Source: Bacilli bacterium
GTDB taxonomy: Bacteria; Bacillota_I; Bacilli_A; RF39; UBA660
Length of the DNA: 54,077 bases
Assembly (NCBI GenBank): GCA_017478105.1
Contig: JAFVEF010000033.1
Location: forward strand, 1-54,077
Direction of reading: 5' to 3'
Shown here: piece after piece, positions 571 through 34,375 of the stretch
Position numbering within the stretch: the stretch's first letter is position 1
Layout: every line of letters starts with the position of its first letter
Made by a program: the position numbers and the translations under genes
Notes under the pieces: model-generated
Databases searched by the model: none
What the model was told of the DNA's origin: nothing
What the model saw: the letters and a program-made list of their open reading frames with translations, nothing else

Positions 571-586
571 TTTTGTTGGAGGTTTT

Positions 587-1030: not shown

Positions 1031-1067
1031 GTTCTTATTTATGATATAATTAAATTGAGGTGTTTTT

Positions 1068-2759: not shown

Positions 2760-2772
2760 AGGAGATGTTAGT

Positions 2773-3066
2773 ATGAATATGCAAGCTATGTTAAAACAAG
2801 CTCAAGCTTTACAAAAAGATATGATGAAAGTAAAAGATGAAATAGATAAGACTGAATTTGTTGGAGAGAGTTCTTTTGTAAAAGTAACTTTATATGGAAC
2901 AAGAGAAGCTAAATCTGTTGAAATTAATTCTGATTCTTTGGATAAGGATGATGTGGAAGCATTACAAGACATGCTTGTTATTGCTATTAATGAGGCTAAT
3001 AAAAAAATTGATAAAGAAACAGAATCTAAGATGGGTAAATTTGGGAATATTCCTGGATTATTTTAG
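2773..3066 (+). CDS. ybaB: YbaB/EbfC family nucleoid-associated protein
   Basis: About 97 aa. N-terminus MQAMLKQAQALQKDM is typical of the family. Located between dnaX and recR. Confidence 0.9.
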   Translation: MNMQAMLKQAQALQKDMMKVKDEIDKTEFVGESSFVKVTLYGTREAKSVEINSDSLDKDDVEALQDMLVIAINEANKKIDKETESKMGKFGNIPGLF

Positions 3067-3074
3067 GTATTTTT

Positions 3075-3671: not shown

Positions 3672-3884
3672 TATGTTTTTATTTTCATATTTTATATTGG
3701 TGATATATATTGATTAAATTATTTAAAAAAGTTATTTTTTCTTTTTTATTGTTATATTTGTTTAATTATATTTTTGGGATTATTATTCCTATAAATATTT
3801 ATACTTTTTCAAGTACTTTTTTTCTAGGAATAAATGGTATATTATTATTGGCTGTTTTTAAATTGATGTTATAGAGGTGTATTT

Positions 3885-4742
3885 ATGAATGATAAATCTT
3901 TATTGAAACAAAAATTTATTGATTATGTTGATTCTATAATTGTGAATAAAAAGATTTCTCATGCATATTTGATTGAATTATCTGATTATGAAGAAGATTA
4001 TAATTATGTATTATCTTTTGTGAAGATGATTTTATGTGATATATCTTATGAAAAATTATTTGGTAGTAATAATAATTTGATTAGTCAAATTGATAATAAT
4101 AATTATCTTGATTTAAAGGTAATTGAACCTATTGGTAATAGTATTAGAAAGAGTCAACTTACTGATTTACAAGATGATTTTTCTAATACTTCTTTAATAA
4201 ATGGAAAGAGAATTTATATTATTAAAAACGCGGAAAAACTTAATAGTTCATCCGCAAATACTATTTTAAAGTTTTTAGAAGAACCTGTTGATAATGTTGT
4301 AGCTATTTTGGTTACTACTAATAGATATAAAATAATTAAGACTATTTTATCGAGATGTCAAATTTTATCTTTGAAAGAGGAAAAATTAGATTTTGACTAT
4401 GATGATGAATTTATAGATTTTTTAAGTTTGTTGTTAAATCCTAAAAACTTTTTTATAAATTATAAATCTATAACTGAAAGTTATCTTGTGGATAAAAATG
4501 TTGCTTTGAATTATTTTGGGTTAGTTGAAAAATCGATTATTTCTTTTTTTCATAATAAGTACTCTGGTGATAGTGTTGATAAAAGAATTTATGATGTTTT
4601 GTCTTCAAAAACGGATAGTTATTTATTAAAATATTTGAGTATAATAGAGAGTGAATTAAAAAAGTTAAATTATAATGTTAATTTTAAATTATGGTTAGAT
4701 TCAATTCTTGCTAGATTATTAGTGGAGGTTAATTATGATTGA
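3885..4742 (+). CDS. holB: DNA polymerase III delta-prime subunit
   Basis: SHAYL motif, FLEEP, SRCQ box. Located upstream of yaaT as in Bacillus. Confidence 0.8.
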   Translation: MNDKSLLKQKFIDYVDSIIVNKKISHAYLIELSDYEEDYNYVLSFVKMILCDISYEKLFGSNNNLISQIDNNNYLDLKVIEPIGNSIRKSQLTDLQDDFSNTSLINGKRIYIIKNAEKLNSSSANTILKFLEEPVDNVVAILVTTNRYKIIKTILSRCQILSLKEEKLDFDYDDEFIDFLSLLLNPKNFFINYKSITESYLVDKNVALNYFGLVEKSIISFFHNKYSGDSVDKRIYDVLSSKTDSYLLKYLSIIESELKKLNYNVNFKLWLDSILARLLVEVNYD

Positions 4743-5520
4743 TGTTGTTGCTGTTAGTTGCGATATATTGAATAATATTTATTATTTATCACCTAATGGA
4801 TTAGATTTAAAGAAAGGTGATAGTGTTATTTTTGAAACTGATAATGGATTATTAGTTGGAAAAGTATGCAAAGAAGTTTATCAAGAAAAGTCTAATAATC
4901 TTGTTTTGCCTTTAAATAAAGTTTTAAGATTGTCTTCAAAAGATGATTTGAAGAAAAATGAGAAAAATATTCATCAAGCAGAAAAAGCTCTTAGTGATGC
5001 TAAAAAGATAAGTAAGGAATTAAATTTAGATATGAATATAATTGATGCTTATTATTATTTTGATAATTCTCAACTTGTATTTTCATTTTTATCTGAAAAT
5101 AGAGTTGATTTTCGTGAATTAGCTAAAAAATTGGCTTCTAAATATAAGACTAGAATTGAATTAAGACAAATTGGTGTACGTGATAAAGCTAAAAAAATAG
5201 GTGGTTTAGGACCATGTGGATTATTCTTATGTTGTAATACATTTTTAAATGATTTTTCAAGTGTTTCTATAAATATGGCTAAAAATCAGATGTTGGCATT
5301 AAATCCTTCTAAAATAAATGGTATGTGTGGAAGATTACTTTGTTGTTTAGGTTATGAAAATGAGACATATACAGCATTAAAAAAAGATTTACCTAAGGTT
5401 GGATTAGTTACTGATACTCCTTTAGGTATGGGGAAAGTAGTTTCTATTGATGTGTTTAGAAAAAAATATTCTGTAGATTTAAAAGAAAAGGGTATTGTTA
5501 CTTTTGAAAAGGAAGATTAG
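4735..5520 (+). CDS. ricT: PSP1 domain protein (RicT/YaaT family)
   Basis: ELRQIGVRDKAK...GPCG..LCC...CGRLLCCL cysteine-rich PSP1 C-terminal signature. Confidence 0.85.
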   Translation: MIDVVAVSCDILNNIYYLSPNGLDLKKGDSVIFETDNGLLVGKVCKEVYQEKSNNLVLPLNKVLRLSSKDDLKKNEKNIHQAEKALSDAKKISKELNLDMNIIDAYYYFDNSQLVFSFLSENRVDFRELAKKLASKYKTRIELRQIGVRDKAKKIGGLGPCGLFLCCNTFLNDFSSVSINMAKNQMLALNPSKINGMCGRLLCCLGYENETYTALKKDLPKVGLVTDTPLGMGKVVSIDVFRKKYSVDLKEKGIVTFEKED

Positions 5521-5525
5521 TTACG

Positions 5526-6254
5526 ATGGAAATGCTTAATGATATTTTAGGTTATGATAATTTAAAAATTTACCAAGATACTGATTTTTTTTCTTTTTCT
5601 TTGGATAGTATAGTTTTAGCAAATTATTCTACAGTTCGATTAAGAGATAAAAAAATACTTGATTTTTGTACTGGTAATGGTATTGTACCTATTATTGTAT
5701 CTAGAAGGACTAAGTCTAATATTTTTGGTGTAGAAATACAAGATAAATTGGTGGATTTAGCAAAAAAATCTATTAGTTATAATAATCTTAATGATAGAAT
5801 TTCTATAATATGTGATGATGTTAAAAATTTTTCTAATGCTAATTTGAATTGTTTTGATTTAGTATTATGTAATCCTCCTTATTTTAAGGTTCATGATAAT
5901 TCTTCTTTAAATTTATCTTATGAAAAGAAGGTTGCTCGTCATGAGGTTTGTATTAATTTAACTGAAATATGTGAGTGTGCCAAGAAGGTTTTAAAAGATA
6001 ATGGTTCTTTTTCTATTGTTTATAGAAGTGATAGGCTTATTGAGTTAATTGATGAGTTTAGAAAACATGGGATTGAACCTAAAAAAGTTAAATTTGTATA
6101 TGAAAAAGTAGATAAAAATGCTAATCTTGTTTTATTGCAAGGACAAAAATGTGGAAAAGTTGGTCTTACAATAGAAAAACCACTTATTATGTATAATGAT
6201 GATGGTAGTATGACTGATGAATATAGTAAATTAAATAAGGAGATATTAGTATGA
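5526..6254 (+). CDS. SAM-dependent N6-adenine methyltransferase, tRNA1(Val) m6A37 (YabB/TrmN6-like)
   Basis: NPPY motif (LCNPPYF) and SAM-binding D.C.GNG. Position matches yabB of Bacillus. Confidence 0.7.
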   Translation: MEMLNDILGYDNLKIYQDTDFFSFSLDSIVLANYSTVRLRDKKILDFCTGNGIVPIIVSRRTKSNIFGVEIQDKLVDLAKKSISYNNLNDRISIICDDVKNFSNANLNCFDLVLCNPPYFKVHDNSSLNLSYEKKVARHEVCINLTEICECAKKVLKDNGSFSIVYRSDRLIELIDEFRKHGIEPKKVKFVYEKVDKNANLVLLQGQKCGKVGLTIEKPLIMYNDDGSMTDEYSKLNKEILV

Positions 6255-7087
6255 TTCAAAATAGTTATGATGATACTCCAAGTTTATACTTGGTTCCAAC
6301 ACCTATTGGAAATATTGAAGATATTACAATAAGAGCAATTAATGTTTTGAAAAGTGTTGATATTATTTTATGTGAAGATACACGTGACTCTTCTGTTTTG
6401 TTAAATAAATATGAAATTAATAAAAAATTAGTTAGTTGTCATCAATTTAATGAACTTTCTGTTGTTAATAAAGTATTATCTTATTTAGCTGATGGATTAA
6501 ATATAGCTTTGATAACTGATCAAGGGACTCCTATTATTAGTGACCCAGGTTATGTTTTAGCAAGAGAAATTATTAAAAATGGTTTCAATGTTATTAGTTT
6601 ACCTGGAGCAACGGCTTTTGTACCTGCTCTTACTTCTTCAGGAATTGAACCATCTCCATTTTTGTTTTATGGTTTTTTAAATTCAAAAAGTAGTAAGCAA
6701 AAAAAAGAGTTAGAAAGTCTTAAAAATTATTCTTTTAGTATAATTTTTTATGAATCAGTACATAGAATTCGTGAAACTTTAAAAAACATACTAGATACTA
6801 TGGGTGATAGAAATATTTGTTTATGTCGTGAATTAACGAAAGTACATGAAGAATACATTAGAGGAAAAGTATCAGAAGTGTTAGATAATTTAAATTTATT
6901 AAAGGGTGAATTTGTAATTATTGTTGAAGGAAATAAGAATTTGATTGATTTTACTGATTTAAGTATAGTTGATCATGTTAAAATGTATTTAGATGATATG
7001 AGTGAGAAAGAGGCTATTAAAAAAGTTGCTTTGGAAAGAAATGTAGCAAAGTCAATTATTTATAAGGAATATCATGAGGGGAAGTGA
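6251..7087 (+). CDS. rsmI: 16S rRNA (cytidine1402-2'-O)-methyltransferase
   Basis: LYLVPTPIGN..DIT.RA...L..VD.ILCEDTR tetrapyrrole-methylase-type N-terminus. Confidence 0.9.
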   Translation: MIQNSYDDTPSLYLVPTPIGNIEDITIRAINVLKSVDIILCEDTRDSSVLLNKYEINKKLVSCHQFNELSVVNKVLSYLADGLNIALITDQGTPIISDPGYVLAREIIKNGFNVISLPGATAFVPALTSSGIEPSPFLFYGFLNSKSSKQKKELESLKNYSFSIIFYESVHRIRETLKNILDTMGDRNICLCRELTKVHEEYIRGKVSEVLDNLNLLKGEFVIIVEGNKNLIDFTDLSIVDHVKMYLDDMSEKEAIKKVALERNVAKSIIYKEYHEGK

Positions 7088-7091
7088 TAAA

Positions 7092-7661
7092 ATGAAACTT
7101 GTTGTAGGGTTAGGTAATCCTGGAAAAGAATATGATAATACTCGTCATAATGTTGGTTTTTCATTTATTGATTTTTATTTAGCAAGCAAGAATATTATCC
7201 CAAATTGGTCTAAAAAATTTGATGGATTGGTTTATTCCTGTACTTTAAATAGTGAAAAGGTTTTATTTTTAAAACCACAAACATTTATGAATTTATCTGG
7301 TAATTCTGTTATTAAAGCAATGAAATATTATGATATTGATATTAACGATATTCTTGTTGTTTCAGATGATATGGATATTATATTGGGTAATTTTAAATTA
7401 AAATCTGCTGGATCTTGTGGTGGACATAATGGTTTGAGGGATATTGAAAATAAATTAGCTTCTAGTGATTATAAAAGATTAAAAATAGGAATATCAAAGC
7501 ATAATGATATTGAATCTAAAGATTATGTTTTGGGTAAATTTTCTAAGGATGAGAATAGTGTTCTTAATGATTTATTTTTAAAACTATGCTCTGTACTTGA
7601 TGATTATTTCCTACTTCCATTTAGTGATTTAATGAGTAAATATAATCGAAAGAACAGGTGA
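7092..7661 (+). CDS. pth: Peptidyl-tRNA hydrolase
   Basis: MKLVVGLGNPG.EY..TRHNVGF. Start taken at the internal ATG after GAGGGG. The ORF track starts at 7074. Confidence 0.92.
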   Translation: MKLVVGLGNPGKEYDNTRHNVGFSFIDFYLASKNIIPNWSKKFDGLVYSCTLNSEKVLFLKPQTFMNLSGNSVIKAMKYYDIDINDILVVSDDMDIILGNFKLKSAGSCGGHNGLRDIENKLASSDYKRLKIGISKHNDIESKDYVLGKFSKDENSVLNDLFLKLCSVLDDYFLLPFSDLMSKYNRKNR

Positions 7662-10600
7662 TTGTTATGTTTGATTTTATAAATGTAATATTGAAAAAAG
7701 ACATGGGTATATATAATTTAACCGATGAATTTTTTTGTTTGTATCTCGATAAAATAAATAAAACTACTGATAATAATATATTAGTTGTTGTTAATAGTAT
7801 TTATGAAGCAAATAAATTATATAATTCGTTAAATAATTATAATGATAATACTTTGCTTTTTCCAATGGATGATTTTTTAACTAGTGAAGCTCTAGCAAGT
7901 TCTCCTGATTTAAAGATTACTAGACTTGAAACATTAAACGCTATTAGTAAAGAAAAAAATAGAATTATTATTACTAATCTTATGGGTTATTTGCGATATC
8001 TTCCTACAAGAAGTAATTATAAAAAGTTTATATTGTCATTAAAAATAGGAGATTGTATTTCTCCTAAAAGTATTGTGGAAAAATTTATTTCAATGGGTTA
8101 TTATCGTGATACTATTGTTAATAAAACGGGAGAAATTGGTGTTAGAGGATTTGTTGTTGATATATTTCCTATTGATGAGGAATATCCTATTAGAATTGAG
8201 TTTTTTGATGATGAAATAGAGTCAATTAGGTATTTTGATCCTGAAACACAAAAGTCTATAAAGAAAATTGATAGTGTTGAAATATATCCTTTTTTTGAAT
8301 TTCTTACTGATAAAAAAGTTGATGAAGATTTTTTTGGTAAACAAAAATATTATTCTGAATATGAAGAGGTATGTAATATATCTCAATTTATTGGAAATTG
8401 TATTACTTTTTTTAAGGATTATGACCAATTAAAAGTTAGTTATTTAAGTATTCTTGAAGAAATAGTTGAATTTAAGAAGAATAAGGATATTAACTATAAT
8501 GGAGATTATATATTTCATTTTAATGAGCTTAATGAAGAGTTTCCAATTTATTATATGTCTTTAAATAATATGTCTTCTGCTAATTATATAAATGAAATGG
8601 TTGATTATGATGTTAAGACTATTAGTAATTTTCACGAAGATCCTGAACAGATTAATTCTTTTATCAGAAAACAAATAAAGAATAAAAAGACTGTTATTAT
8701 TTGTTTAAAAAGATATCAGATACGTAGTATTATGAAATATCTTAATATGAAGGTTGTGGAAACTGATATTAATAATATTCAAGAGGGTTGTGTCAATTTA
8801 GTTGAATATGGAATTGGTCAAGGTTTTTTTTATAATAATTATGTTGTTTTAACGGCTTTTGAATTATTTAATGTGAAAGAAAAGGTTAAAAAGTATAAAA
8901 CAAATTATAGATATTCTTCTTCTATTAATGATGTTAATAGTTTGAATGTAGGGGATTATGTTGTACATAGTATTCATGGAATTGGTGTTTATAATGGTAT
9001 TAAAACTTTATCTTTACATGATATTACTAAGGATTATTTAGAGATTTTATATCAAGGTACTGATAAAATATATATACCAGTTGAAAAAATAGATATTCTT
9101 AGTAAATATTCTAGTCGTGAAGGGGTAATGCCTAAAATTAGTAAATTAGGTGGTACTGAATGGCAAAAAACTAAGGCTAGAGTTAAATCTAAAGTTACTG
9201 ATATGGCAGAAAAATTATTAAATCTATATGCTATTAGGGAATCAAAATCAGGATTTGCTTTTTCAAAGGATTGTGATATGCTTATTGATTTTGAAAATGA
9301 TTTTCCATATGAGTTAACAGTTGACCAAAGAAAGGCAATTGAACAAATAAAGGGTGATATGGAATTAGCTACTCCTATGGATAGGTTATTATGTGGAGAT
9401 GTTGGTTTTGGAAAAACCGAAGTTGCTTTTGTAGCAGCATTTAAAGCGATGCTTGATTCAAAGCAAGTATTATTTTTGTGTCCAACTACTATTTTATCTA
9501 CTCAGCATTATGATAATGCATTAGAAAGATTTAAAAATTTTCCTGTTAATATTGCTTTACTTAATAGATTTACTTCTTCTAAAGAAAAGAATAAGATTCT
9601 TGAAGGATTAAAAGAAGGTACTATTGATATGGTTATTGGTACACATAGATTATTATCTGATGATGTTGTTTTAAAGGATTTAGGACTTTTAATTATTGAT
9701 GAAGAGCAAAGATTTGGAGTTGCTCATAAGGAAAAAATTAAAGCTTATAAAACAAACGTAGATGTTCTTACTTTGACTGCAACACCTATTCCTAGAACTT
9801 TGCAGATGTCACTTGTTGGTATTAGAAGTTTATCTTTAATTGAAACTCCTCCAATAAATCGATATCCTGTTCAAACATATGTTGTTGAGGAAAATAAACA
9901 AATATTAAAAGATGCTATATATAAAGAATTATCAAGAGATGGACAGGTATTTATTCTTTATAATAGAGTTCAATCTATTCATGAATATGCAAGTAGAATT
10001 AAGAATATTGCTCCTGATGCTACTATTGGTATTGCTCATGGACAAATGAATAAGAATGATTTGGAATCAACTTTATATGATTTTATTAATCATAAATATG
10101 ATATTTTATTGTGTACTACTATAATTGAAACTGGTATTGATATTCCTAATGTTAATACATTGATAATATTAGATGCTGATAGATTTGGTTTAAGTCAACT
10201 TTATCAGATAAGAGGAAGGGTTGGTAGAAGCGATAAAATAGCTTATGCTTATTTAATGTATCAACCGTTTAAGAATTTAACTGAAAATGCTGTTAAGAGG
10301 TTAAATGTTATTAAAGAGTTTACGGAGCTTGGTAGTGGTTTTTCAATAGCAACAAGAGATTTATCTATTAGAGGTGCAGGTGATATTTTAGGAAATGAGC
10401 AAGCAGGCTTTATAGATAGTGTTGGTGTTGATTTATATTTAAAAATGCTTGATTGGGAAATCAAAAGACTAAATAATGAAAAGGTGGAAGAAGATATTAC
10501 TGATGATAGTAGTAAACCTTTAGTTAATGTTACTACTCATATAAGTGATGATTATGTTTCTGATGATGATTTAAAAATTGAAATTCATAAAAAGATTAAT

Positions 10601-11019: not shown

Positions 11020-11667
11020 ATGGATAGTATTGAGGAGTTGAAAAAACAACATGTGGAAGGTTATAAAAATGCTATTATTGAAATAATAAAGAATAATACT
11101 AGAGTTTTAGTAGAAGAAGATATTTTGTCTTTAGTTAAAAAACCTCCATTAGATTCTATGGATCAAATTAAAATTAAATTTTTAGATTTAGCTAAAAAGA
11201 ATAAAATAGTTTTAATTACGAATAATTTAGATGAAATGATTGATCAATATAGAATAAATTTAGAAAAAAAGGTTTTATGTTTAAAGGACTATAGGATTGA
11301 ACAATTGTTAAAAAAAATAAATATTGATACTAGTAAATTTGATGATACTATAAAATTTTGTAAGAAAGATTTTACTATGATTGATAAATATATTAATAGT
11401 ATTATTAAGGATAGTATTAGTGAGTGTTTTAAATCTGATATTGAATCTAAGTTTGATTTATTATTTGGTGATATAGATGAAAGTATTAAAAATAAGTTTA
11501 TTAAGGAAATAACTAAGTATTTTAAAACTTCGTATAAAAAACAATTATTAGAGAATATAGATATTAAAGTACTTGTTAAAAATACTACTTTAATGAATGG
11601 AGTTAATGAGCAAAGTGATCGATATTTGTTTACTATAAATAATTCTAGATTATTTACTGATTATTAA
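11020..11667 (+). CDS. Hypothetical protein, Lys/Ile-rich and probably helical
   Basis: GGAGG RBS before the ATG and coding-like composition. No motif recognised. Confidence 0.5.
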   Translation: MDSIEELKKQHVEGYKNAIIEIIKNNTRVLVEEDILSLVKKPPLDSMDQIKIKFLDLAKKNKIVLITNNLDEMIDQYRINLEKKVLCLKDYRIEQLLKKINIDTSKFDDTIKFCKKDFTMIDKYINSIIKDSISECFKSDIESKFDLLFGDIDESIKNKFIKEITKYFKTSYKKQLLENIDIKVLVKNTTLMNGVNEQSDRYLFTINNSRLFTDY

Positions 11668-16243: not shown

Positions 16244-17044
16244 ATGGAAAAATATGATGTTAAGTTTAAAAAAAAATTAGGACAGAATTTTTTAAAGAAT
16301 ACTAGTGTTGTTGATAGGATAGTTAATCAGGCTGATATTGATTCTAATTCTTTAGTTATTGAAGTTGGACCTGGTGGAGCAATTATGACTAGGGAGTTAG
16401 CTAAAAAGGCAAAAAATGTTTTGGCTTATGAAATTGATAATGATTTGGCAGATGAAATTCATAAGAGACTAGAAGGATATGATAATGTAGTTGTTTTATT
16501 TCAAGATTTTTTATTATCTGATATATCTAAGGATATAGCTAAGTTTGATTATGATAAACTTTTTTTTATTAGTAATGTTCCTTATTATATTACTACACCT
16601 ATCTTAATGAAGTTAATTAATTCAGGGTTATCATTTAATAAAATTGTTATGATGGTTCAAAAGGAAGTTGGAGATAGATTTTCTACAAAATGCGGGAGTA
16701 GAGATTATGGTTCTATAACAGTTCTTTTAAATTATTTTTATGATGTTCGTAGAGAGTTTGTTGTTTCGAGAAATAACTTCGTACCTGTTCCAAATGTTGA
16801 TAGTGTTGTAGTAACATTTACAGAGAAAAATAATAAGAAGACTGTGAAGAATTTTAGTTATTTTGATAAATTAGTTAGGGATTCTTTTAAATACAAGAGA
16901 AAAACTATTAAAAATAACTTGAAGAATTATGATTTAAATATAGTAAGCCAAGTCTTATCTAAATATGGTTATGATTTATCAGTTAGGGCAGAAATGTTAG
17001 ATGTAGATGTTTTTGTTGATTTAGCAAATGCATTAGGAAAATAG
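16244..17044 (+). CDS. rsmA: 16S rRNA (adenine1518/1519-N6)-dimethyltransferase
   Basis: KKLGQNFL, EVGPGGA, NVPYYITTPI. Confidence 0.93.
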   Translation: MEKYDVKFKKKLGQNFLKNTSVVDRIVNQADIDSNSLVIEVGPGGAIMTRELAKKAKNVLAYEIDNDLADEIHKRLEGYDNVVVLFQDFLLSDISKDIAKFDYDKLFFISNVPYYITTPILMKLINSGLSFNKIVMMVQKEVGDRFSTKCGSRDYGSITVLLNYFYDVRREFVVSRNNFVPVPNVDSVVVTFTEKNNKKTVKNFSYFDKLVRDSFKYKRKTIKNNLKNYDLNIVSQVLSKYGYDLSVRAEMLDVDVFVDLANALGK

Positions 17045-17077: not shown

Positions 17078-17443
17078 ATGGGAGATGATTATTTGAACTT
17101 TAAAGAAGGAGATTTGGTTACTAGAATATCCCATAAACATGATATAGTTTTTAAAATAGAAAAAATAGAGGGAAATGTCGTTTATTTAAAAGGGGTTAAT
17201 GTTAGATTATTAGCTGATTCTTATCTTGATGATATAGTTATTTCTGATAATAATTCTTTGGATGATGAAGAAATAATTCAGAGAAGTGTTAAAAATCTAG
17301 ATATTGATAGGAATAATTATTTTTATATTCCTGGAAAAATTCTTCATATTGATACCGAGTTTCAATTAACTAACACCCTCGCAAACCCTTATAAAATAAG
17401 GAAAAAAGCAATTTTTGAAAATTGTAAAAATCATCAAAAATGA
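17078..17443 (+). pseudogene. yabG: 5' fragment (about 92 codons) of sporulation peptidase yabG, fused to an unrelated tail from the inserted element
   Basis: GDLVTRISHKHDIVFKIEKIEG...VRLLADS and FYIPGKILHID match my recollection of the B. subtilis YabG N-terminus (GDMVARKSY..DVLFRI...VRLIADS; MPGKVLHLDGD). Similarity stops after HID at about 17353. The gene sits after rsmA, as yabG sits after ksgA in Bacillus. Full-length YabG is about 290 aa. Confidence 0.7.
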
Positions 17444-17634
17444 CAAAAAAATGGCAATTTTTATAAAATGTACTACACTCAATTATAGGGGGCGACATAT
17501 CCTTAAGTAACTAAATGTGATATATTTTTTAACCAATAATACATAACAAGAATTGAAGATGATTCAGTTCTTTTTTTATGCCATACATAGCCATTATTTT
17601 TATGATGGCTAAATAGAAAGAAAGGAGGTAAGTT

Positions 17635-18456
17635 ATGTCTATTTGCAAAGTTATTGCAGTAGCAAATCAAAAAGGTGGAGTTGGCAAAACCACTACAACA
17701 TTTAATTTAGGTGTAGCATTATCTAAATTAGGTAAGAAAGTATTGTTGGTCGATTGTGATCCACAAGGCGATTTAACAACTTGTATGGGTTATTATAATA
17801 CTGATAATATACCTACTCTTGCTAATTTAATGGATTCAGTTATATATGACAAGTATATTAATACTGAAAATGTAATTTTACACCACAAAGAGAATGTCGA
17901 TTTAATACCGTCTAATTTGGATTTATCTGCGACATCTTTTTCATTAATAACTGCTATGAACAGAGAGCAAACAATGAAAAATTGTCTTAAAGATGTTAAG
18001 AATAATTATGATTATATCTTAATAGACTGTAATCCTAGTTTAGATATGATTACTTTAAATGCTTTATCTTGTGCTGATAAGGTTATTATTCCTGTACAGA
18101 CACAATATTTAGCAGCTAAAGCAATGACACAACTATTAGGAACAGTTGGTCGAGTTAAAAGACAAATAAATCCAAACCTTAATGTTGGTGGAATACTACT
18201 CACATTAGTAGATGGTAGAACTAATTTGTCAAAAGAAACCAAACTGACTTTACAGGAAAATTATGGGAGTTATATAAAGATATTTGATACTCAAATTTCT
18301 AATACTGTAAAAGTAGCAGAAGCTACAAAGTCAGGACAAAGTATTTTTGCTTATGATAAGAACAATAAAGTTGCAGAGTCATACTTGCTATTTGCAAAGG
18401 AGGTTGAGAATATTGGAAAAGAAAGAAAACAAAATGCACCTACCATCGATAGATGA
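17635..18456 (+). CDS. parA: ParA/Soj-family partition ATPase
   Basis: Deviant Walker [19 protein letters not shown], strong AAAGGAGG RBS. Confidence 0.92.
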
Positions 18457-19372
18457 TATATTTACAACCCAACAAGAGCGAGATGAGGCAAATTTAGAAA
18501 AAGTAGTTAATATATCTATTAAAGATATAGATGATTACCCAGAACATCCTTTTAAAGTTCTTGTTAATGATGAAATGCAAGAAATGGTAGATAGTATTAA
18601 AGAAAAAGGTATTCTTGTTCCTACTATCGTAAGACAAAAAGCAGATGGTAGATATGAAATGATTTCTGGACACCGAAGAAAGAAAGCAAGTGAACTTGCA
18701 GAACTAGACACTATTCCATGTATAGTTAGAGATTTAACTGATGATGAAGCAACAATCATTATGGTAGATAGTAATTTACAAAGAGAAAAAATACTACCTA
18801 GCGAGAAAGCATTTGCTTATAAGTTAAAATTAGAAGCAATAAAACATCAAGGTAAAAGAACAGACTTAACTTCTGTGCCAGTGGCACATAAGTCTTCAAG
18901 GCAAGAACTTGGAGAAAAAGTCGGTGAAAGTCAAGATCAAGTCAGAAGGTATATTCGTTTGACAGAGTTAATACCTGAACTATTAAAAATGGTTGATAAT
19001 AGTGTTTTAGGTGAATCGCCAAGTATAGCATTTAGACCTGCTGTTGAATTATCTTATTTAACAAAAGATGAGCAAACAGATTTATTAGATTTAATTGAAT
19101 GCTATGATTGTACTCCATCACTTGCACAAGCAATTAAATTAAAAAATATGAGCCAGAATAAATACTTGTCTATTGAAGGTATGGAAGAAATTATGGAAGA
19201 ATCTAAACCTAATCAAACTCCCAAACTAAAAGTAAGTATGAATCGACTTAATAACATACTCCCAGATACTCTCAAAAATGATAGAGAACGAGAGGAATAT
19301 GTTATCAAAGCAGTTGAATGGTATGACAAATACCAAAAGAAAATGCGAGAACGAAAAGGACAAGAACGATAA
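18434..19372 (+). CDS. parB: ParB/Srx-domain protein (plasmid/ICE type)
   Basis: ParB N-terminal box [12 protein letters not shown] and a downstream HTH-like region. Start taken at ATG 18434 ([10 protein letters not shown]), overlapping the parA end. Confidence 0.8.
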
Positions 19373-20321: not shown

Positions 20322-23069
20322 ATGAAAAAAATAACAAAATGTATGTTGTTAGCATTTGCTTTATTAGTTGGATTTACTGTAAAAGCTAATGCAGTACAAG
20401 CAGCAACATTACACCAAGAAAATACATCATATTATTATGATAGATCACGAGGAGATGGAAGCGACCATCATTCGTGGTATTTTAAGCACTATACAATGGA
20501 CGGTGCAGTAGCATATTGTATAGAGCCAAATGTTCCTGAAGGTGTAACCTATAATCAGGGAGATTATTCAGCAACTGGATTATCAGATTCATATAAAGAA
20601 AGATTATTATTAATTGGATATTATGGATACACATATCCAGGACACCAAACTGAACAATATCGTATGGCTACTCAAGGTTTATTATGGGATACGATTATTG
20701 GTAATGGTGCTAATACTCAATTTACAACTGCTCGATGGGGTGCAGGAAATGTTATGGATATTTCAGCAGAAAAAGCCGAAATAAATAGACTAATAGAACA
20801 TCATTATGATGTACCATCATTTAATACAGGTGTTTACAAAGTTCAAGTTGGAGAAACCTTAACTTTAACAGATACCAATAATTTATTATCACAATTCGAT
20901 GTAAGTGTTAGTGGTGCTAATTATAATATAGATGGTAATACAATTACTATTGTTCCAACTCAAAGTGGAAAAATAGATGTATCATTTACTAAAAAAATGC
21001 CTTATACAACAAGTTATAAATTATTTGTTGGCGATGGAATACAAAACATGATGGTGCCAGGTATGGTAGATCCTGTTATTGCTAAAATTAGAATTAATAG
21101 TTATTCAAGTCCTGTTGAAATTGTTAAAAAAGATAAAGAGACAAATGAAAGTATTAGTCAAGGACAAGCAACCTTAAAATCTGCAAAATATGGAGTTTAC
21201 GAAACAAGTACAGGTAAATTAATTACAACAATTGAAACTGATGAAAATGGTTATGCTAAAAGTGAAGCAGTTTTAAATTGGAATGACTATTATCTTCAAG
21301 AAATAAGTCCAAGTGAAGGATATTTACTTGATAATACTAAATATCATTTTGATATGAGAGGTAAAGAAATAGAAAGAGTTGAAGTTTTTGAAACAGTAGT
21401 TAAGAATTATATTTCTATCTTAAAACAATATGAGTTTGTAGATGGAGAAACAACATTCTTAAATGCTGAAAAAAATATTACTTTTGAAATATTTTATCCT
21501 AATGGAGATAAATTTGATGAAATAACTACTGACAAAAACGGATATGCAACTATTAATTTACCTTATGGAGTATGGAAATTTCATCAAGTAAATACAACTA
21601 CTGGATTTGCGAAAATATATGATTTCTTTATTACTGTTGATTACAATAGTGAACAAGAACAATATTATAATATTTTAAATAATGCTTTATCAGCTTATTT
21701 ACAAGTATTTAAAGTAGATAGTGAAACTGGTAAAAAGATTGCACTAAAAGATACTACTTTTAAAATCTTTAATATTGATAAAAATCAATATGTATCACAA
21801 TTCGTTGGTGGTAAAGTTTATAGTGAATTTAAAACCGATGAAAATGGTACTTTTACAACCTATTTAAAATTGGAAAGTGGAAATTACAGACTAATAGAGG
21901 TATCTAGTCCTAAAGGGTATTTGTTAGATGAAAATGGAGTTGAATTTACTATTGGAAATGATACTCATTTTGCATATACAACTTATGGACCTTTTATCGC
22001 TTTGTATGTTAAAAACACACCAATAAAAGGTAAAATAGAAATATTTAAAAGTGGTGAGATTTTTACTGCAATAGATGATAGTTTTAATTATGATAATACA
22101 AAGTCATTAGAAGGTATTGTTTATAATATTTATGCTGATGAAGATATTAAATCATCTGATGGAAACCATTTATATTATGAAAAAGATGAACTTGTAGGAA
22201 CTATGACTACTAATAGCGATGGTTATGCAGTAAGTGCAGAATTGCCACTTGGAAAATATAGAGTTGTCGAATCAAAGACTAATGATAATTATGTTTTAGA
22301 TACAACAGAATATCATATAGAATTAGTTGAAAAGGATAATAAAACAAGAGTTGTTTATAATTCTAGTGAAATGACTAATGTTTTAAAGAAAGGAACATTA
22401 GAATTTACAAAAACTGATTTAGTTGATGGACAACCTATTCCATTTACAACTATACAAGTATTCACAGAAAATAATGAAAAAATATTTGAAGGTACAACAG
22501 ATGAAAATGGTAAGATTATCATCAAAAATTTAAGTGTTGGTCAAAAATACTATATTATCGAGAGTGAAGCTGCAACTGGTTATGTTATTACGGATGAAAT
22601 AGTATATTTTGAAATAAAAGACAATGGCGAAGTTGTAAAAGCAGAAATGAAAAACAAACCTATTATTGGTAAGTTAGAATTTACAAAGTTAGATTTTAGT
22701 ACAAATCAACCAATCCCTAACACATTAATAGAGATATATTCTGTTGATGATGAAGAAACACCTATTTTTTCTGGAAGAACTGATGACAATGGAATGATTA
22801 TCATTGATGAATTAAGATATGGAAAGTATTTCATTTTAGAAAAAGAAACTGGAACACCTGATTATATTTTAAATCCTGAAAGAATGTATTTTGAAGTTCT
22901 TGAAGATGGCGAAGTTGTTAAATGTACAATGGTTAATGAATTAGCACCAATAGAAGTACCAAATACAGGTGTTAGAGATTATTATATTATTATTCAAGTA
23001 ATTGGTAGTTTAATTGTATTTTCTGGAATAGGAGTGATGATCTATGCGAATAGAAAAAGAAAAAAATAA
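20322..23069 (+). CDS. Cell-wall-anchored adhesin with an N-terminal thioester-domain-like region, multiple SpaA/Cna-B type repeats and a VPNTG sorting signal
   Basis: Signal peptide ending VKANA. YCIE (Cys66, nt 20517-20519) and ATQGLLW (Gln118, nt 20673-20675) signatures. Repeated modules of the type LEFTK.D...PIP......DENG.I.I..L..G.Y...E. C-terminal VPNTG, hydrophobic stretch and NRKRKK tail. Confidence 0.8.
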   Translation: MKKITKCMLLAFALLVGFTVKANAVQAATLHQENTSYYYDRSRGDGSDHHSWYFKHYTMDGAVAYCIEPNVPEGVTYNQGDYSATGLSDSYKERLLLIGYYGYTYPGHQTEQYRMATQGLLWDTIIGNGANTQFTTARWGAGNVMDISAEKAEINRLIEHHYDVPSFNTGVYKVQVGETLTLTDTNNLLSQFDVSVSGANYNIDGNTITIVPTQSGKIDVSFTKKMPYTTSYKLFVGDGIQNMMVPGMVDPVIAKIRINSYSSPVEIVKKDKETNESISQGQATLKSAKYGVYETSTGKLITTIETDENGYAKSEAVLNWNDYYLQEISPSEGYLLDNTKYHFDMRGKEIERVEVFETVVKNYISILKQYEFVDGETTFLNAEKNITFEIFYPNGDKFDEITTDKNGYATINLPYGVWKFHQVNTTTGFAKIYDFFITVDYNSEQEQYYNILNNALSAYLQVFKVDSETGKKIALKDTTFKIFNIDKNQYVSQFVGGKVYSEFKTDENGTFTTYLKLESGNYRLIEVSSPKGYLLDENGVEFTIGNDTHFAYTTYGPFIALYVKNTPIKGKIEIFKSGEIFTAIDDSFNYDNTKSLEGIVYNIYADEDIKSSDGNHLYYEKDELVGTMTTNSDGYAVSAELPLGKYRVVESKTNDNYVLDTTEYHIELVEKDNKTRVVYNSSEMTNVLKKGTLEFTKTDLVDGQPIPFTTIQVFTENNEKIFEGTTDENGKIIIKNLSVGQKYYIIESEAATGYVITDEIVYFEIKDNGEVVKAEMKNKPIIGKLEFTKLDFSTNQPIPNTLIEIYSVDDEETPIFSGRTDDNGMIIIDELRYGKYFILEKETGTPDYILNPERMYFEVLEDGEVVKCTMVNELAPIEVPNTGVRDYYIIIQVIGSLIVFSGIGVMIYANRKRKK

Positions 23070-23697
23070 AAAAAGATTTAAAAAGAGTCAGCTTATAATA
23101 GTTGGCTCTTTGCTTATCTTATTAGGCGGTTGTGTAATATGTGGTAAATATGCATATAACTACTTTTTAGATAGAATTGAAGATATAAAAATAGAAGAAT
23201 TTTATAATGAACAGGAAAATATTGATACAGAAGTAATTGAAGAAACAACTGAAAAAGTTGAAGAAACAAAACAAGAAACAAAAATTGATTATGTTGCAGT
23301 TATTAAAATACCCAAAATTGGTTTAGAAAAAGGTCTATGTAAAAAAGGTAGTTATTGCAATAATGTTAATCAAAATATTCAAATATTAAAAGAATCAAGT
23401 TATCCAGATGTATCAAATGGAAACTTTATATTAGCAGGACATTCTGGTAATGGTAGAACTGCTTATTTTAGAAATGTTTATAAGTTAGATAAAGATGATG
23501 AAATAAGCATTATCTATGGTGGTTTTGAATACAAATATAAAATAGTTAATATTTATGATGTAGAGAAAACTGGAACTGCTAGTATAGTCAGAAATAGAGA
23601 AAAAACAACATTAACACTTGTAACTTGCAGACATAATACTAATAAACAAATTATAGTTATTAGTGAGTTAGTAGAAAGGAAAGAATATAATGGCTAA
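23044..23697 (+). CDS. Sortase (transpeptidase), dedicated to the upstream adhesin
   Basis: N-terminal TM segment, catalytic His in LAGHSG, TLVTC catalytic Cys motif. Overlaps the adhesin stop. Confidence 0.85.
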   Translation: MRIEKEKNKKRFKKSQLIIVGSLLILLGGCVICGKYAYNYFLDRIEDIKIEEFYNEQENIDTEVIEETTEKVEETKQETKIDYVAVIKIPKIGLEKGLCKKGSYCNNVNQNIQILKESSYPDVSNGNFILAGHSGNGRTAYFRNVYKLDKDDEISIIYGGFEYKYKIVNIYDVEKTGTASIVRNREKTTLTLVTCRHNTNKQIIVISELVERKEYNG

Positions 23698-24496: not shown

Positions 24497-27400
24497 ATGG
24501 CAACAACAGTAACAGTAGTTAATGCCTTATACAAAGATACGATTAAAGAAGTATCTCAAGATGCAACAAATTGGCAATCTTTTTTAAGAACTGCATCAAT
24601 GAATTATACTAATAGTTTTAGTGAGCAATTACTTATATATGCTCAAAGACCTAATGCTATTAGTTGTACTGATATAGATACTTGGAATGACACTTATAAA
24701 AGATTAGTTAATCGTGGCACTCCTGGAATAGGTCTTTTAACAGAGTTTAATGGTAAACCTAGAATAAGATATGTATGGGGATTAAATGATACTCATAGTA
24801 TTTATGGAAGAAAAGGTAAAAAACTAAAAATATGGAAAGTACCTAAAGTGTATGAAGATCAAGTTATTGAATCACTTGAAAATAAATTTGGTGAATTAAA
24901 TAACAAAGATAATTTAGTTAATGCAATTAAATCAGTTGCAACAAATCTTATGGAAGATAATTACAATGATTATTTAGACGATTTAATTTCAAATAAGTTT
25001 GATACTAGATTAGAAAATATTTCAAATGATGTTATAGAAAAGTATTATAAAAAAATACTAGAGAATAGTATTGCATATATGATTATTAACAGGAGTGGTA
25101 TAAATCCTACTCCTTTTTTTAATGATACTGATTTTATAGAAATACCAATATTTCAAGATATTGAAAGTATTGCAAGATTAGGTACTGCTGCAAGTGATAT
25201 TGCAGAGATGGGTATTAGAGAGATTTATGTATCTCTTAAAAATATACGAATAGCAGAAATTGAAAAAATTCGTACATTTGATAAAAGTAATCAGATAGTT
25301 TATGATGATAATGAAAAAAGCAGAAATGCTGAAAGGAGCGATAATTATGAACATGACTTACACTCAAGTGGGCAATTACCTACTACCGAATTTAGTTACG
25401 ATCGAGGAAGAACAATTCAAAATGGGCAAGTATGGGACAATGAGGCTTCAATACTTGAAAGAGAACAAGAAAGGGACATACGAAGCAATGTTGATGAAAG
25501 GAACTCTACAAACACATTTGAAAGAGATAGAAACATCAGCACAAACGAGAGTATCGACAATAATGGACGAGATGAAAAAGAAACTCAATATAACGGAAGA
25601 ATTGAAGTCAGTCAATCAAATGAAATGGCTTGGGATGATGAACAATATCAAGAATCAAGCCGAAGAAATAATGATGAGAGAACTAATCTTCAACTAGATA
25701 GTAATGGGAATACCGAAAATGGTATTCTTTTTTCAAATGAAGATAGATATGATTATAAAGTTGGCGACAAAGTTTTTATTGGATTAGATGAATATGAGAT
25801 AACAAAGATTGGGTTATTTGATATTGAATTATATGATCCAAATGCTCCACTCTTTGGTAGAACAATGAGTGTTATTGACTTTGAAACTAAATTAAAAGAA
25901 AATCCTGCTAATGAACATTTAAAAGTAAAAAATGTTAAAAATGAAGTTATAACTGAAACTATAACAAGTGTTGATTCATTAGATGAGGAACATTCATTTA
26001 CAGTAGCAAGAGTTATTGATAATCAACATTGTGTTGAACTTCATTATTTTAATAATAAAGCTACAGTAGAAATTGGCACTAAAGTTAGAGATGATTATTG
26101 GGAAAGCATAGTTGAAGATGCAGACTGGTTTAATAAAGATTTAAGCGACAATGAGATTATAGATAAATTAAGTGAGATATTTACAGAAAATTTTGAAAAT
26201 ACTATTTCAAAAGAAACTGATAATTATTATGGCGAATATAACGATGAAATAGATTTAATTGACCATATATTATCTAGTCATAAAATAGATGATATTATTA
26301 TGGACTTTAACGAAGATGGTATTATCATTGCTAATGATGATGAGGGAAATGTTTGGGAAGGAAAAGAATTTTACGACTTTTTATTCAATGACTTATTTGA
26401 TTATAATGAAAACGGAACAGTTGATTTAATAGACAATAAAGACTTTGAGAGATTGAAAGAATATCGTAAAAAGTATGATATTACTGAACAAAAAGAAATA
26501 GTACCGACTGAAAAAGAAAATATAGTATCAACTACTAATAACTCCTCTCAACTATCGTTATTTATACCAAAAGAACAAGAACTAGCAGATAGAATTGTAG
26601 AAGAATTTAATGCTTTAGATACAAAATATAAAGGAACTTTTTATGTTTCTTCCATTGAATTAGAAAAATGGAATCATATTAAATCAAAGAAAAGAAACCT
26701 TACTATTTCTATTAAAAGTAGTGAGTGTACAGGATATAATGAAACTAGCTTTACTCAATTCAATAGTGATAAAACTTCCGAAGTAACTTTAAGAGAAAGT
26801 ACAGAAATAAGTAAGTTTTTAAATTATTTAAGTGAAGATAAAGATTTTTCTATTACCATTACACCAGATAGTCTATTAGTTTTCTATCATAACTTTGATG
26901 AAAAGCAATTAGATTTAAGTATTGGTAAAGATAATGTTTTATCTAGTATAAGCGATAAAGATAATATAGAAATAATAGATAATCCAAAATTAGAAATACC
27001 AAAGGTTATAAAGAAGCTAAGAAATAGAGTTATTAACTATGTACTTCATCCTGAAATACCATACGAGGAACGAATCAATTATAAAATAGTTGATGATAAT
27101 ATTGGTGTTGGACAACCTAGAGAGAGATTTAGAAACAATATAAATGCTATTAAAACATTAAAGCAATTGCAAAATGAAGATAGATATGCAACTCCTGAAG
27201 AACAAGAAATATTATCTAAATATGTTGGTTGGGGTGGCTTATCTCAAGCATTTAAAAAAGATAGTGATTGGGCTACTGAATATCAAGAATTAGGTACTCT
27301 TTTAGGTTTTGATAGTGATGAGTATAATAAAGCAATGGCGTCAGTTAATACTGCTTTCTATACACCTCCTATTGTTATAAAATCAATATATAAAGCATTA

Positions 27401-30400
27401 GAAAACATGGGACTTCAAAAAGGTAATATTTTAGAGCCAAGTTGTGGTATTGGAAACTTTATAGGATTACTACCAAATAATGACAATTTAAAGATATATG
27501 GTGTTGAATTAGATGATTTAAGTGGTAATATAGCTAGGCAATTATATCAAAAGTCATCTATTGCGATTAAAGGGTTTGAAGATGTAGAATATCCAGACTC
27601 TTTTTTTGATGTTGCAATAGGAAATGTACCATTTGGTGAGTTTCCAGTATATGACAAAAAATATGATAAACACCATTTTTTGATACACGATTATTTCTTT
27701 GCTAAAACTATTGATAAAGTAAGACCAGGTGGTGTTATTGCACTAATAACTTCTAGTGGAACAATGGATAAGAAAAGCGAAGATGTTAGAAAGTATATTG
27801 CTGCACGAGCAAATCTTTTAGGTGCAATTAGATTACCTAACAACACCTTTAAAGATGCTGCAGGTACTAAAGTAACAAGTGATATTTTATTCTTACAAAA
27901 AAGAGATTCCATAACTGATATAATGCCTGATTGGGTGCATTTAGATAATAGCGAAGATGGAATTGTAATGAACAAGTATTTTGTAGATAATCCTAATATG
28001 ATTTTAGGAAAAATGGAAACTACAACACATTTTGATATGACTACTTGCACTCCATTTGAAGATAAAGATTTAAGTGAATTATTAGATAATGCAATATCTA
28101 ATATTCATGCTGAAATAAAAGATTATCAATTAGAAGAATTAACCGAAGAAGATAATTCAATCGAAGCAGATTTAAATGTTAAAAACTTTTCTTATACAGT
28201 TATTGATGATAAAGTATATTATCGTGAAAATAGTAGAATGTATCCACAAGAACTATCAGTAACTGCTGAAAACAGAGTTAAAGGGTTAATTGAATTAAGA
28301 GATACTACAAGAGAACTAATTGATTTACAATTAGAAGATATGCCTGATGAAGATATAGAAAAACAACAAGCAAAATTAAATACCTTATATGATAATTTCA
28401 CTAAAAAATATGGACTAATAAATAGTCGTGCAAATGCTTCTGCTTTTAATGGTGATAATAGTTATTATTTGCTTTGTTCATTAGAGATATTAGATGAGAA
28501 TGGTAATTTATTAAGAAAAGCTGATATGTTCTCTAAAAGAACAATTATGGCACATAAAGCACCACAAAAAATAGAAAGTTCTAATGATGCTTTAATCGTG
28601 TCTATTGGTGAAAAAGCAATGGTTGATTTAGATTATATGAGTGAAATATCTCACAAATCAAAAGATGAACTTGTAAGCGATTTAGAGGGTATTATATTTA
28701 AAATACCTAACGAGGATAGATATGTTACTGCTGATGAATATTTAAGTGGAGACATTCGTGAAAAGATTAAGGAAGCAGAACTTGCAAATGAAACTAATCC
28801 TATTTATGATATTAACCTTAAATATTTATATGAAGCAAAACCTGAAGATTTGAATGCCAGTGAAATTAGTGTAAGACTTGGAACTACTTGGATACCGCCT
28901 GAAGATTATGAAAAATTCATGTTTGAATTGTTTGATACCGACTATTACTCTAAAAGAAAAATTAAAATAAATTATTCTGATATTACAAATGAATGGTCTA
29001 TTGAAAATAAAAGTTATGATAGATATAACGAAAAAGTTAGATCTACCTATGGAACTAAAAGAATTAATGGTTACAAGATATTTGAAGAAACTTTAAATCT
29101 CCGAGATGTTAAGATATATGACTATTTTGAAGATGAAGAAGGCAAAAAGAAACGAGTTTTAAATGGTAAAGAAACTGCTATTGCACAGGGAAAACAAGAA
29201 CAAATAAAGCAAGCATTTCAAGATTGGATATGGTCTGATCCTGATAGAAGAAACAGACTAGAAAAGAAATATAATGAATTATTTAATGCTATTAAACCTA
29301 GAGAATATGATGGTAGTAATATTATATTTGATGGAATAAATCCTGAAATATCATTAAGAGAGCATCAAATAAATGCTATTGCTAGAATACTTTATGGTGG
29401 AAATACCTTACTTGCTCACGAAGTTGGTGCAGGTAAAACTTTTGAAATGGTTGCAGCTGCAATGGAAAGTAAAAGATTAGGATTATGTAATAAATCTTTA
29501 TTTGTAGTACCTAATCATATTGTAGAACAATTTGCTAGTGAGTTCTTACAATTATATCCTAGTGCGAATATTTTAGTAGCAACAAAAAAGGATTTTGAAA
29601 CTGCTAATCGTAAAAAGTTTTGTTCCCGTATTGCTACAGGAGAATATGATGCAGTAATAATTGGTCATTCTCAATTTGAAAAGATTCCAATGTCAGTAGA
29701 AAGACAAATGACATTATTAGAAAAAGAAATAAGTGAGATAATGGATGCCATTGATAATGGACAAATGTCTGGTGCATCATTTACTGTAAAACAACTTATG
29801 AAAACAAAAAAACAACTAGAAACAAAACTACAAAGACTTAATGATAGTTCAAGAAAAGATGATAATGTTGTTACCTTTGAACAATTAGGCGTTGATAGAT
29901 TATTTGTTGATGAAGCACATTATTATAAGAATTTATTTCTTTATACCAAGATGAGTAATGTTAGTGGAATTGCTCAAACTGAAGCACAAAAGAGTTCAGA
30001 TTTATATATGAAATGTAAATATTTAGATGAAATAACTGGAGGAAAAGGAATTGTATTTGCAACTGGAACTCCAATATCTAATTCAATGGTTGAGTTATAT
30101 ACAATGCAGAGATATTTACAAACAAATACACTATATAAGTTAGGATTACAAAACTTTGATGCTTGGGCTTCTACTTTTGGGGAAACTACTACTGCAATAG
30201 AACTTGCTCCAGAAGGAACAGGTTATCGTGCTAAAACTAGATTTGCAAAGTTTTATAATTTACCAGAATTAATATCTGTATTTAAAGAAGTCGCAGATAT
30301 AAAAACTGCTGATATGTTAGACTTGCCAGTACCAAAAGCAAACTATGAAAACATTGTAGTAGCACCTAGTGAGATACAAGAAAAAATGGTTGAAGAATTA

Positions 30401-32469: not shown

Positions 32470-32513
32470 TGTTTTCTTCCTTTATTTATTTTAAAGAAAG
32501 GAATGATTAAATT

Positions 32514-34354: not shown

Positions 34355-34375
34355 TTAGATTAAGTTTTAATTATT

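Follow-up and report, generated by a model that had tools for sequence, protein, structure and literature searches.

The window analyzed here, the complete 54,077-nt contig JAFVEF010000033.1 of a Bacilli bacterium (RF39; UBA660), carries a truncated copy of the sporulation protease gene yabG, followed directly by the genes of what is very probably an integrative and conjugative element (ICE). The gene order rsmA-yabG-veg-spoVG is known from Bacillus, and in the window, too, an open reading frame (ORF) with YabG similarity follows rsmA. This ORF (17078–17443, 121 aa) matches Pfam PF05582 (Peptidase_U57, E=3.7e-16) at profile positions 1–123 of 280 only, and likewise matches only the N-terminal part of NCBIfam TIGR02855 (spore_yabG). 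Alignment with intact relatives places the end of the YabG similarity at ...FYIPGKILHID, the last codon of which ends at nt 17353; the 29 codons that follow (17354–17440) bear no resemblance to YabG. A preliminary description of this DNA, made from its letters alone, had seen a YabG N-terminus up to FYIPGKILHID and then an unrelated 29-codon tail, and had made its reading depend on a profile assignment of residues 1–92 to the Peptidase U57 family; the two profiles and the alignments bear out both. A tblastn search with 65 intact C-termini found no match to the C-terminal part of YabG in the window, as had been described, but the number of absent codons is approximately 165–175 instead of the 200 first estimated, given that intact relatives comprise 247–269 aa. 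The 121-aa product falls short of a full-length YabG (~250–290 aa with the GHD and GACQS catalytic motifs) and, judged by its sequence, is a fragment of a Peptidase U57 family member and not a functional member. The coding sequence of this mother-cell sporulation gene is therefore interrupted, the cut lying after codon 92. Translation may in fact begin at the TTG at 17093 and not at the ATG at 17078.

A short ORF of this kind could also be a natural stand-alone gene for the YabG N-domain in reduced-genome Bacilli, with a conjugative element merely adjacent, and our first protein search appeared to favor this, as nearly all of its 113 matches were proteins of 90–130 aa with PF05582. Yet all of these short proteins break at one residue and then continue into element-encoded tails. 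Their YabG N-terminal parts are only 48–65% identical to the query, while the tail TEFQLTNTLANPYKIRKKAIFENCKNHQK is identical or near-identical across many hosts with diverged YabG parts; further related tails are TDILLSNNPTKPYKIRKKAKIRN, SDILLNNDLKNPYKIRKN... and ADILTSSVSK. Among the 113 protein clusters from the YabG-fragment search that we used for tail comparison, at least 57 have element-type tails starting directly after HID. A scan of GTDB species genomes for yabG returned 80 loci, with hosts labeled 'Bacilli bacterium', 'Mycoplasma sp. CAG:877', 'uncultured Tenericutes' and Candidatus Faecimonas; approximately 70 of these loci, from related, RF39-like gut Bacilli, hold an intact yabG of 247–269 aa, so that full-length genes are present in species representatives of the same clade. 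The intact relatives continue past the break residue as ILHID-GDxDYLxRCM...ITGHDA. Because intact yabG is the norm and the tail is shared by diverged hosts, the 121-aa ORF is a truncation product with a foreign tail, which agrees with the split gene proposed in the preliminary description. Matching 3′ fragments, moreover, stand at the other end of the inserts and rejoin in frame with the 5′ parts (see below). On the strength of the intact relatives, the far-end 3′ fragments and the in-silico rejoining, we rejected a natural short gene, which we consider highly improbable.

The boundary also stands out at the nucleotide level. Between the window and L004, a locus from a different host that served as comparison partner, identity is 65–70% across mfd, metG, tatD and rsmA, versus 95% over the 5.5 kb beginning at the junction. 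The left-end signature occurs seven times in GTDB species genomes, in all seven cases directly after yabG ...ILH(I/L)D, and is absent from IMG/VR; an identical element end is found in three different hosts. These observations establish an insertion that is specific for its site and recurs in many hosts, and, as far as can be read from the sequences, it has spread horizontally. An assembly or binning chimera of a host contig and an unrelated conjugative-element contig could produce a similar boundary, and the other end of the contig does lie in a repeat, so breaks at repeats do occur in this assembly. The contig, however, is present in four gut metagenome runs of 2021, the independent contigs of which span 17353/17354 at an even depth of 10–17x, and in ENA assemblies ERZ28654512, ERZ28666527 and ERZ28019184, and the same junction type appears in dozens of independent assemblies and metagenome-assembled genomes (MAGs). 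For these two reasons we ruled out a chimera, the probability of which we regard as negligible.

The far end of such inserts is visible in relatives. In L059/L090, the two yabG halves are 5.4 kb apart and enclose a gene for an ATPase and, in tandem, genes for two large serine recombinases of 542 and 523 aa; the yabG 3′ part follows within ~55 bp, and then veg and spoVG. A GTDB search with the terminal recombinase of L059/L090 yielded 11 loci, in ten of which a yabG 3′ fragment, starting at YabG residue ~83–94 and preceding veg and spoVG, comes immediately after a recombinase pair (~530 and ~520 aa); all ten 3′ fragments have open reading frames. Both recombinases of a pair contain Resolvase, Recombinase and Zn-ribbon domains and are 38% identical to each other. 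In JAGALD010000065.1 (166.8 kb), 51.9 kb separate the yabG halves, which flank a complete conjugative element of the window's type: the yabG 5′ part with the ParA, ParB, adhesin, sortase and SNF2 genes at ~81.9 kb, and the recombinase pair with the yabG 3′ part, in the same orientation as the 5′ part, at ~30.0 kb. The first 10 kb of this element are ~70–74% identical to window positions 17.0–27.6 kb. In two further MAGs, attL and attR are on separate contigs. All relatives of the conjugative type have a parA-parB pair at their left end, and cargo-only relatives of ~5–11 kb (L090, L095, L100) carry no transfer genes. The cargo of L100 (8.9 kb; 3432–7991) comprises a GT2 glycosyltransferase, an APH-type kinase, a radical-SAM enzyme and a NUDIX hydrolase, and that of L095 (11.3 kb; 507–8099) a VWA protein, TelA, an AAA ATPase and a GDPD. 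Since these cassettes share the same recombinase pair, the recombination module moves very different payloads. In-silico excision at GAT was carried out on relatives, the window itself being without a right end, and gave a gap-free YabG of 259–263 aa in 4/4 testable loci, 67–93% identical to the nearest intact orthologues listed. Both the architecture of the relatives and the restoration of the gene in silico are thereby established.

Right ends of these elements show two further features. In L091 (7577–8132), a gene for a MazF/PemK toxin, preceded by a small ORF and probably forming an addiction module, stands in the 51.9-kb element directly before a ~40-aa ORF (discussed below) and the recombinase pair. 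The right end also carries an ORF reading toward the junction (L100, 11650–12384; L091, 11577–11762). The one in L100 runs in frame into the yabG 3′ part, the resulting product of 244 aa covering Peptidase_U57 profile positions 56–280, and the YabG catalytic part might be expressible from the element there.

Comparison of the junctions defined the recombination sites. All attL junctions read as host ...CAT-ATT-GAT and then element A(C/G)(T/C)GA(C/G)-N6-TTAA-N-TAAC, and all attR junctions as element ...GTTACTTAA-N5-GTCAG-CA-GAT and then host GGN-GAY. We also ran the alignment with intact yabG genes that had been proposed for defining attB, and the bases shared at the junction are GAT. As these are the only bases common to attL, attR and attB, the crossover falls within the Asp92 codon. 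In the window, attL is defined at 17351–17374, whereas attR and an integrase were seen in relatives only. The attP site reconstructed from relatives is an imperfect dyad, GTTACTTAA-N5-GTCAG-CA[GA]TA-CTGAC-N6-TTAAGTAAC, with its inner repeat centered on GA, and the central dinucleotide is most likely GA (17351–17352), AT being the alternative. TnpX and TndX use a GA crossover, and the preliminary description had pointed to GA dinucleotides at the junction as compatible with that type; the first of them (ttGAt) is the best candidate, being dyad-centered, with the N-domain of the relatives' recombinases closest to TnpX among solved structures (PDB 2mhc, E=1.5e-29). The RLS serine motif is invariant in these recombinases, which show the three domains, catalytic Ser and GA-centered dyad of the TnpX/TndX type. 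A profile search with the recombinase alignment, for which too general a motif was used, returned mostly distant Clostridia recombinases (30–37% identity) that are not beside yabG, and the yabG association is for that reason specific to the close recombinase family.

The left end contains a further conserved feature. The perfect palindrome CCTTATAAAATAAGG recurs in every left end of this type, always +34 nt from the crossover and beyond the core expected for attP. The PYKIRK conserved among the tails is encoded by this palindrome, which may be a protein-binding site. Other tails after HID are unlike PYKIRK: ADHLCNSEFEKVL (P0032, P0081, P0085, P0101), ADCFVSTNSK (P0058, P0068) and GCCFFVNK... 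(P0035, P0042). To go by these tails, other element lineages may use the same yabG site.

Past the junction, the window encodes the transfer functions of the element (Table 1). The preliminary description had listed a terminator-like hairpin, parA/parB and a full conjugation module. The hairpin, first put at 17550–17577, is real and spans 17548–17572, its 10-bp stem leading into a U run (−9.7 kcal/mol, z=−3.5); being AT-rich, it escaped a consensus terminator scan. Pfam and NCBIfam confirmed the remainder. A relaxase, coupling protein, VirB4, PrgI, TrbC-like protein and sortase with adhesin are all present, as in an ICE, and by gene content the Prg/Pcf-type conjugation module within 17354–47481 appears complete. 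The 2439-aa SNF2 protein is typical of such conjugative elements. As described earlier, the window holds no recombinase: the relatives' serine recombinases gave a best E=2.6 there, and no integrase Pfam domain was found in the scanned window ORFs. Recombinases beside the junction were found in the relatives, the window's contig ending before the right junction.

Table 1. Features of the host–element boundary, the element and the flanking host DNA in the window.
Feature	Coordinates	Strand	Evidence and remarks
bofA, 54-aa homologue, after recR	3710–3874	+	PF07441, 30.3 bits vs cut-off 26.1
rsmA (ksgA)	16244–17044	+	PF00398 RrnaAD, E=8.8e-58; host gene upstream of yabG, likewise in relatives
yabG 5′ fragment, host-encoded, residues 1–92, ends ILHID	17078–17353	+	PF05582 and alignment with intact/truncated relatives
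Crossover codon GAT (Asp92)	17351–17353	+	Only sequence common to attL, attR, attB; center of attP dyad
29-codon element-encoded tail and stop	17354–17443	+	In-frame fusion to yabG 5′ fragment; tail TEFQLTNTLANPYKIRKKAIFENCKNHQK near-identical in at least 15 protein clusters
Element left end	17354–17401	+	attP-derived arm ACCGAG-N6-TTAACTAAC (17354–17374) and palindrome CCTTATAAAATAAGG (17387–17401)
Terminator-like AT-rich hairpin and T run	17548–17579	+	Between truncated ORF and parA
parA	17635–18456	+	PF13614/PF01656
parB	18347–19372 (maximal ORF)	+	PF02195
Surface adhesin, thioester and SpaA domains	20322–23069	+	PF17802, PF08341
Sortase of the adhesin	23044–23697	+	PF04203
2439-aa SNF2/helicase giant protein	24497–31816	+	PF00176, PF04851, PF00271; homologue in L007, L101
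DNA-processing module	32125–36985	+	DUF6664, DpnD/PcfM, DUF3991-Toprim, HU, NikA, relaxase, DUF3801
Relaxase, MobP/Q-type	34872–36200	+	PF03432
Mating-pair formation module	38171–47481	+	VirD4, TrbC-like, membrane ORFs, PrgI, VirB4, 540-aa ORF
VirD4-type coupling protein	38171–39997	+	PF02534
PrgI	43183–43545	+	Pfam/NCBIfam scans
VirB4 ATPase, CD1110 family	43542–45857	+	NCBIfam NF045971, 1013 bits
Cargo/accessory region	48185–54077	+	3-hydroxyacyl-CoA dehydrogenase, VanZ-like, three helix-turn-helix (HTH) proteins (Pfam)
Repeat at contig end	52900–54077 (1.18 kb)	+	99.5–99.7% identical in at least two unrelated contexts

With high confidence, we read the window as attL plus at least 36.7 kb of an ICE that inserted site-specifically into yabG, the gene of a sporulation cysteine protease, in an uncultured, RF39-like gut host of low GC content within the class Bacilli. 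The large conjugative intervening element of more than 36 kb suggested in the preliminary description has its counterpart in JAGALD010000065.1, where the same type spans 51.9 kb, and by analogy the full element is expected to measure ~50 kb. The earlier proposal that the recombinase and the yabG 3′ part lie beyond 54077 stands as to the arrangement, found in 10/11 relative loci; for the window, whose own end is unseen, it is a strong inference from these relatives. The assembly stopped at 54077 because the terminal 1.18 kb is a repeat, and as this repeat has at least two unrelated continuations, the element's own right end is unrecoverable by homology. Exact-protein look-ups of the last three full ORFs gave no match.

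According to the mechanism that we propose, integration would be catalyzed by TnpX/TndX-type large serine recombinases, the two genes of which stand in tandem at the element's far (right) end, with strand exchange within the Asp92 GAT codon of the conserved YabG motif ILHID-GD. As the insertion leaves the N-terminal domain of 92 residues on one side and the catalytic motifs (ITGHDA, AGACQS) on the other, the integrated state would be yabG-null, and precise excision would rebuild the gene. We further suggest, with slightly less than an even chance of being right, that excision occurs in the mother cell and is switched by a small sigma-E-driven factor. The recombinases would be made constitutively, and a small recombination directionality factor expressed from a sigma-E-type promoter would turn on excision in the sporulating mother cell; yabG would be whole by the time of sigma-K transcription, and the forespore would retain the integrated copy. 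In 11 loci (L090–L100, L107), the first recombinase gene is immediately preceded by a conserved ~40-aa ORF (MDKKKELVICVYDDNAPTVSEKILEAFERYLKSTLQNAK) that Pfam, NCBIfam and PHROG assign to no family. Upstream of this ORF are a terminator and the motif TCATTAA-N13/14-CATAnnnT, the latter present in 8/11 loci, with a background frequency of once per 15.6 kb. Most loci also show a promoter-like sequence, TTGTAA-N17-TATAAT, ahead of the first recombinase gene.

The host context includes several sporulation genes. bofA regulates pro-sigma-K processing and has a homologue in the window (Table 1), and SpoVT, BofA, veg and spoVG are found around the locus in relatives. Between mfd and metG, where L101, L004 and L105 have a SpoVT-like gene, the window (11020–11667) contains a 215-aa ORF with no Pfam match. 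Ca. Faecimonas corresponds to GTDB genus CAG-877 of order RF39, with 28% GC and a 1.4-Mb genome (PMC8035907), and spore formation is predicted for RF39 (PMC10868615). Within the sigma-K regulon, yabG is described as the sole member to be conserved across spore formers (PMC10747680).

We also looked for the excised form and its circular junction. Contigs aligned to the 5.4-kb relative gave noisy joints only, none of them at att sites. An attP junction of the window's element would join the right end to ACCGAGTTTCAATTAACTAAC. An attR-like pattern gave four matches in IMG/VR, with no YabG or recombinase nearby, which we dismissed as chance.

A number of observations weigh against the insertion as we read it or against its proposed timing. 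The window stops in the 1.18-kb repeat, before the element's own right end is seen, and its last 41 bases, searched exactly, are absent from GTDB genomes and JGI metagenomes. A few bases of the window's attL arm (ACCGAG...TTAACTAAC) deviate from the arms found in the subfamilies with visible recombinases. The motif upstream of the 40-aa ORF resembles what we take to be the sigma-E consensus, which is that of Bacillus, and these motifs lie in AT-rich DNA. No SpoVT-like gene is present between mfd and metG in the window, and the sporulation capacity of its host is consequently not assured. Only the integrated junction was found in the assembled contigs of four metagenome runs, which drop rare variants, and a degenerate attP pattern had no match in JGI metagenome contigs or IMG/VR.

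Some of these points fit a serious rival to mother-cell timing, in which the insertion and the recombinases are the same but have no developmental role. As a conserved but dispensable gene, yabG would then be a safe landing site, knocked out in carriers, with rare excision for transfer, and spore coat and germination would be altered, or there would be no effect at all. We regard this as a real possibility, though one that falls somewhat short of probable. The integrated form as the only one in the four runs and the lack of an attP junction in assembled collections are as this rival predicts; the window and L007 are without the SpoVT-like gene at the syntenic site, a hint of sporulation-gene erosion; and conjugative elements need excision in a vegetative donor anyway. 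Furthermore, B. subtilis and C. difficile are still able to form spores when yabG is mutated (summarized in PMC10747680). Against this rival, the yabG halves remain uninterrupted, rejoining without gaps in 4/4 testable loci and with all ten 3′ fragments open, and in cargo-only relatives, which have no transfer genes, the two recombinases and the small ORF upstream of them are nevertheless intact. The 40-aa ORF with its conserved mother-cell-type promoter motif likewise speaks for developmental control, and yin, the only yabG-intervening element studied, excises during growth and sporulation (PMC10747680).

Going beyond mother-cell timing, the recombinase-pair family as a whole, with its self-transmissible conjugative members of ~50 kb and cargo cassettes of 5–11 kb, could be a developmental yabG switch of uncultured RF39-type gut Bacilli that couples conjugation to sporulation, which we consider unlikely. 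The 40-aa directionality factor, driven by sigma-E, would confine excision to the mother cell and restore yabG for late sporulation; the circular, transfer-competent element would be freed in a cell about to lyse, while the forespore would keep the integrated copy.

Gene-splitting elements in sporulation genes are a classic programmed DNA rearrangement. To our knowledge, the cases described so far comprise only prophages, their remnants and one small non-viral element, with a single reported interruption of yabG. That case, yin, is a prophage-like element of C. botulinum V73 that excises and circularizes in a growth-phase-dependent manner, and its authors found no other yabG-disrupting element in public databases (Douillard et al. 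2023, PMC10747680). As in yin, a large serine recombinase element interrupts the yabG coding sequence here, and excision rebuilds yabG and yields a circular form, in the present case by prediction. Unlike yin, which is prophage-like, confined to a single strain and equipped with one recombinase beside the yabG 5′ part, the elements described here are conjugative or, in relatives, small cargo cassettes, have two tandem recombinases beside the 3′ part, and occur in many species of a different bacterial class.

Other sporulation-gene elements share part of this organization. In skin, inserted in sigK (SpoIVCA in B. subtilis; CD1231/CD1234 in C. difficile), and SPbeta, inserted in spsM (SprA/SprB), a large serine recombinase also splits a mother-cell sporulation gene, and the combination of a constitutive recombinase with a small mother-cell-expressed factor parallels the logic proposed here. 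In contrast to our elements, however, these are defective or active prophages with one recombinase, and developmental excision, demonstrated for them, is inferred in our case. gin, in gerE of B. cereus ATCC 10987, is non-viral and has a recombinase and a small factor, but lacks conjugation genes (PMC5595907), whereas the window element has a full type IV secretion and relaxase set. vfbin shares its logic with skin, SPbeta and gin, none of them conjugative.

Outside sporulation, the SCCmec cassettes also have two paralogous large serine recombinases side by side (CcrA/CcrB) and insert variable cargo into one conserved gene, but they integrate at the rlmH 3′ end without destroying rlmH, whereas the target here is yabG. 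The relatives' recombinases scored 86–124 bits against the NCBIfam CcrB cut-off of 900 and fall outside CcrAB; the likeness to SCC-type cassettes is one of architecture only. With Tn4451/Tn5397 (TnpX/TndX), our elements have in common a recombinase catalytic domain closest to TnpX and a central dinucleotide that is probably GA, and with the conjugative transposons of C. difficile 630 a VirB4 of the NCBIfam CD1110 family; in contrast to our elements, none of these has been reported to target yabG or any sporulation gene.

The elements thus constitute a conjugative, horizontally spreading, two-recombinase family of yabG-intervening elements in uncultured gut Bacilli. yabG appears to be an insertion hot spot, and the gene-splitting strategy is not bound to phages and spreads horizontally, such that a phenomenon known from one prophage-like element of C. 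botulinum now looks widespread and self-transmissible. The family also offers a compact recombinase pair with defined attP/attB and a candidate directionality factor, and attL, attR, attB and attP could serve as a molecular marker for whether uncultured RF39 sporulate in the gut.

Two other interrupted yabG genes came up among the loci. In a Marinisporobacter sp. MAG of the Clostridia (L117, 3128–7865), yabG is split elsewhere, after ...ANFASSP at residue ~234, by an insert of ~3.9 kb in which a single 472-aa serine recombinase adjoins the yabG 5′ part in a yin-like layout; yabG thus has another insertion site, independent of the one at Asp92. In L050 (559–10351), the frame changes after HFDGDNSY, and the insert contains an insertion sequence (IS)-like 431-aa gene, an ABC transporter and a 531-aa recombinase resembling the first of the pair; its attP arm is more attB-like, and the crossover there cannot be placed.

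The 1.18-kb repeat at the end of the window holds an HTH_26 gene (323/327 aa). The ~120 nt before this gene (52858–52976) are 77% like the DNA after it in L198, which suggests, from the sequence similarity, a cassette flanked by repeats. In one context (L198, 5746–7191; L200, 2184–3629; L202, 2004–3449), the repeat is followed by a 481-aa gene of the thiol-activated (cholesterol-dependent) cytolysin family (PF01289), and PrsW, a SpoIIE-type phosphatase with HATPase domain, a STAS protein and an IS110 transposase are also found there. In the other (L199, 79–8272; L201; L203), it is accompanied by tyrosine integrases, an HTH_17 excisionase-like gene, Mob_Pre relaxases and a type I methylase, a gene set that looks like small mobilizable elements in tandem.

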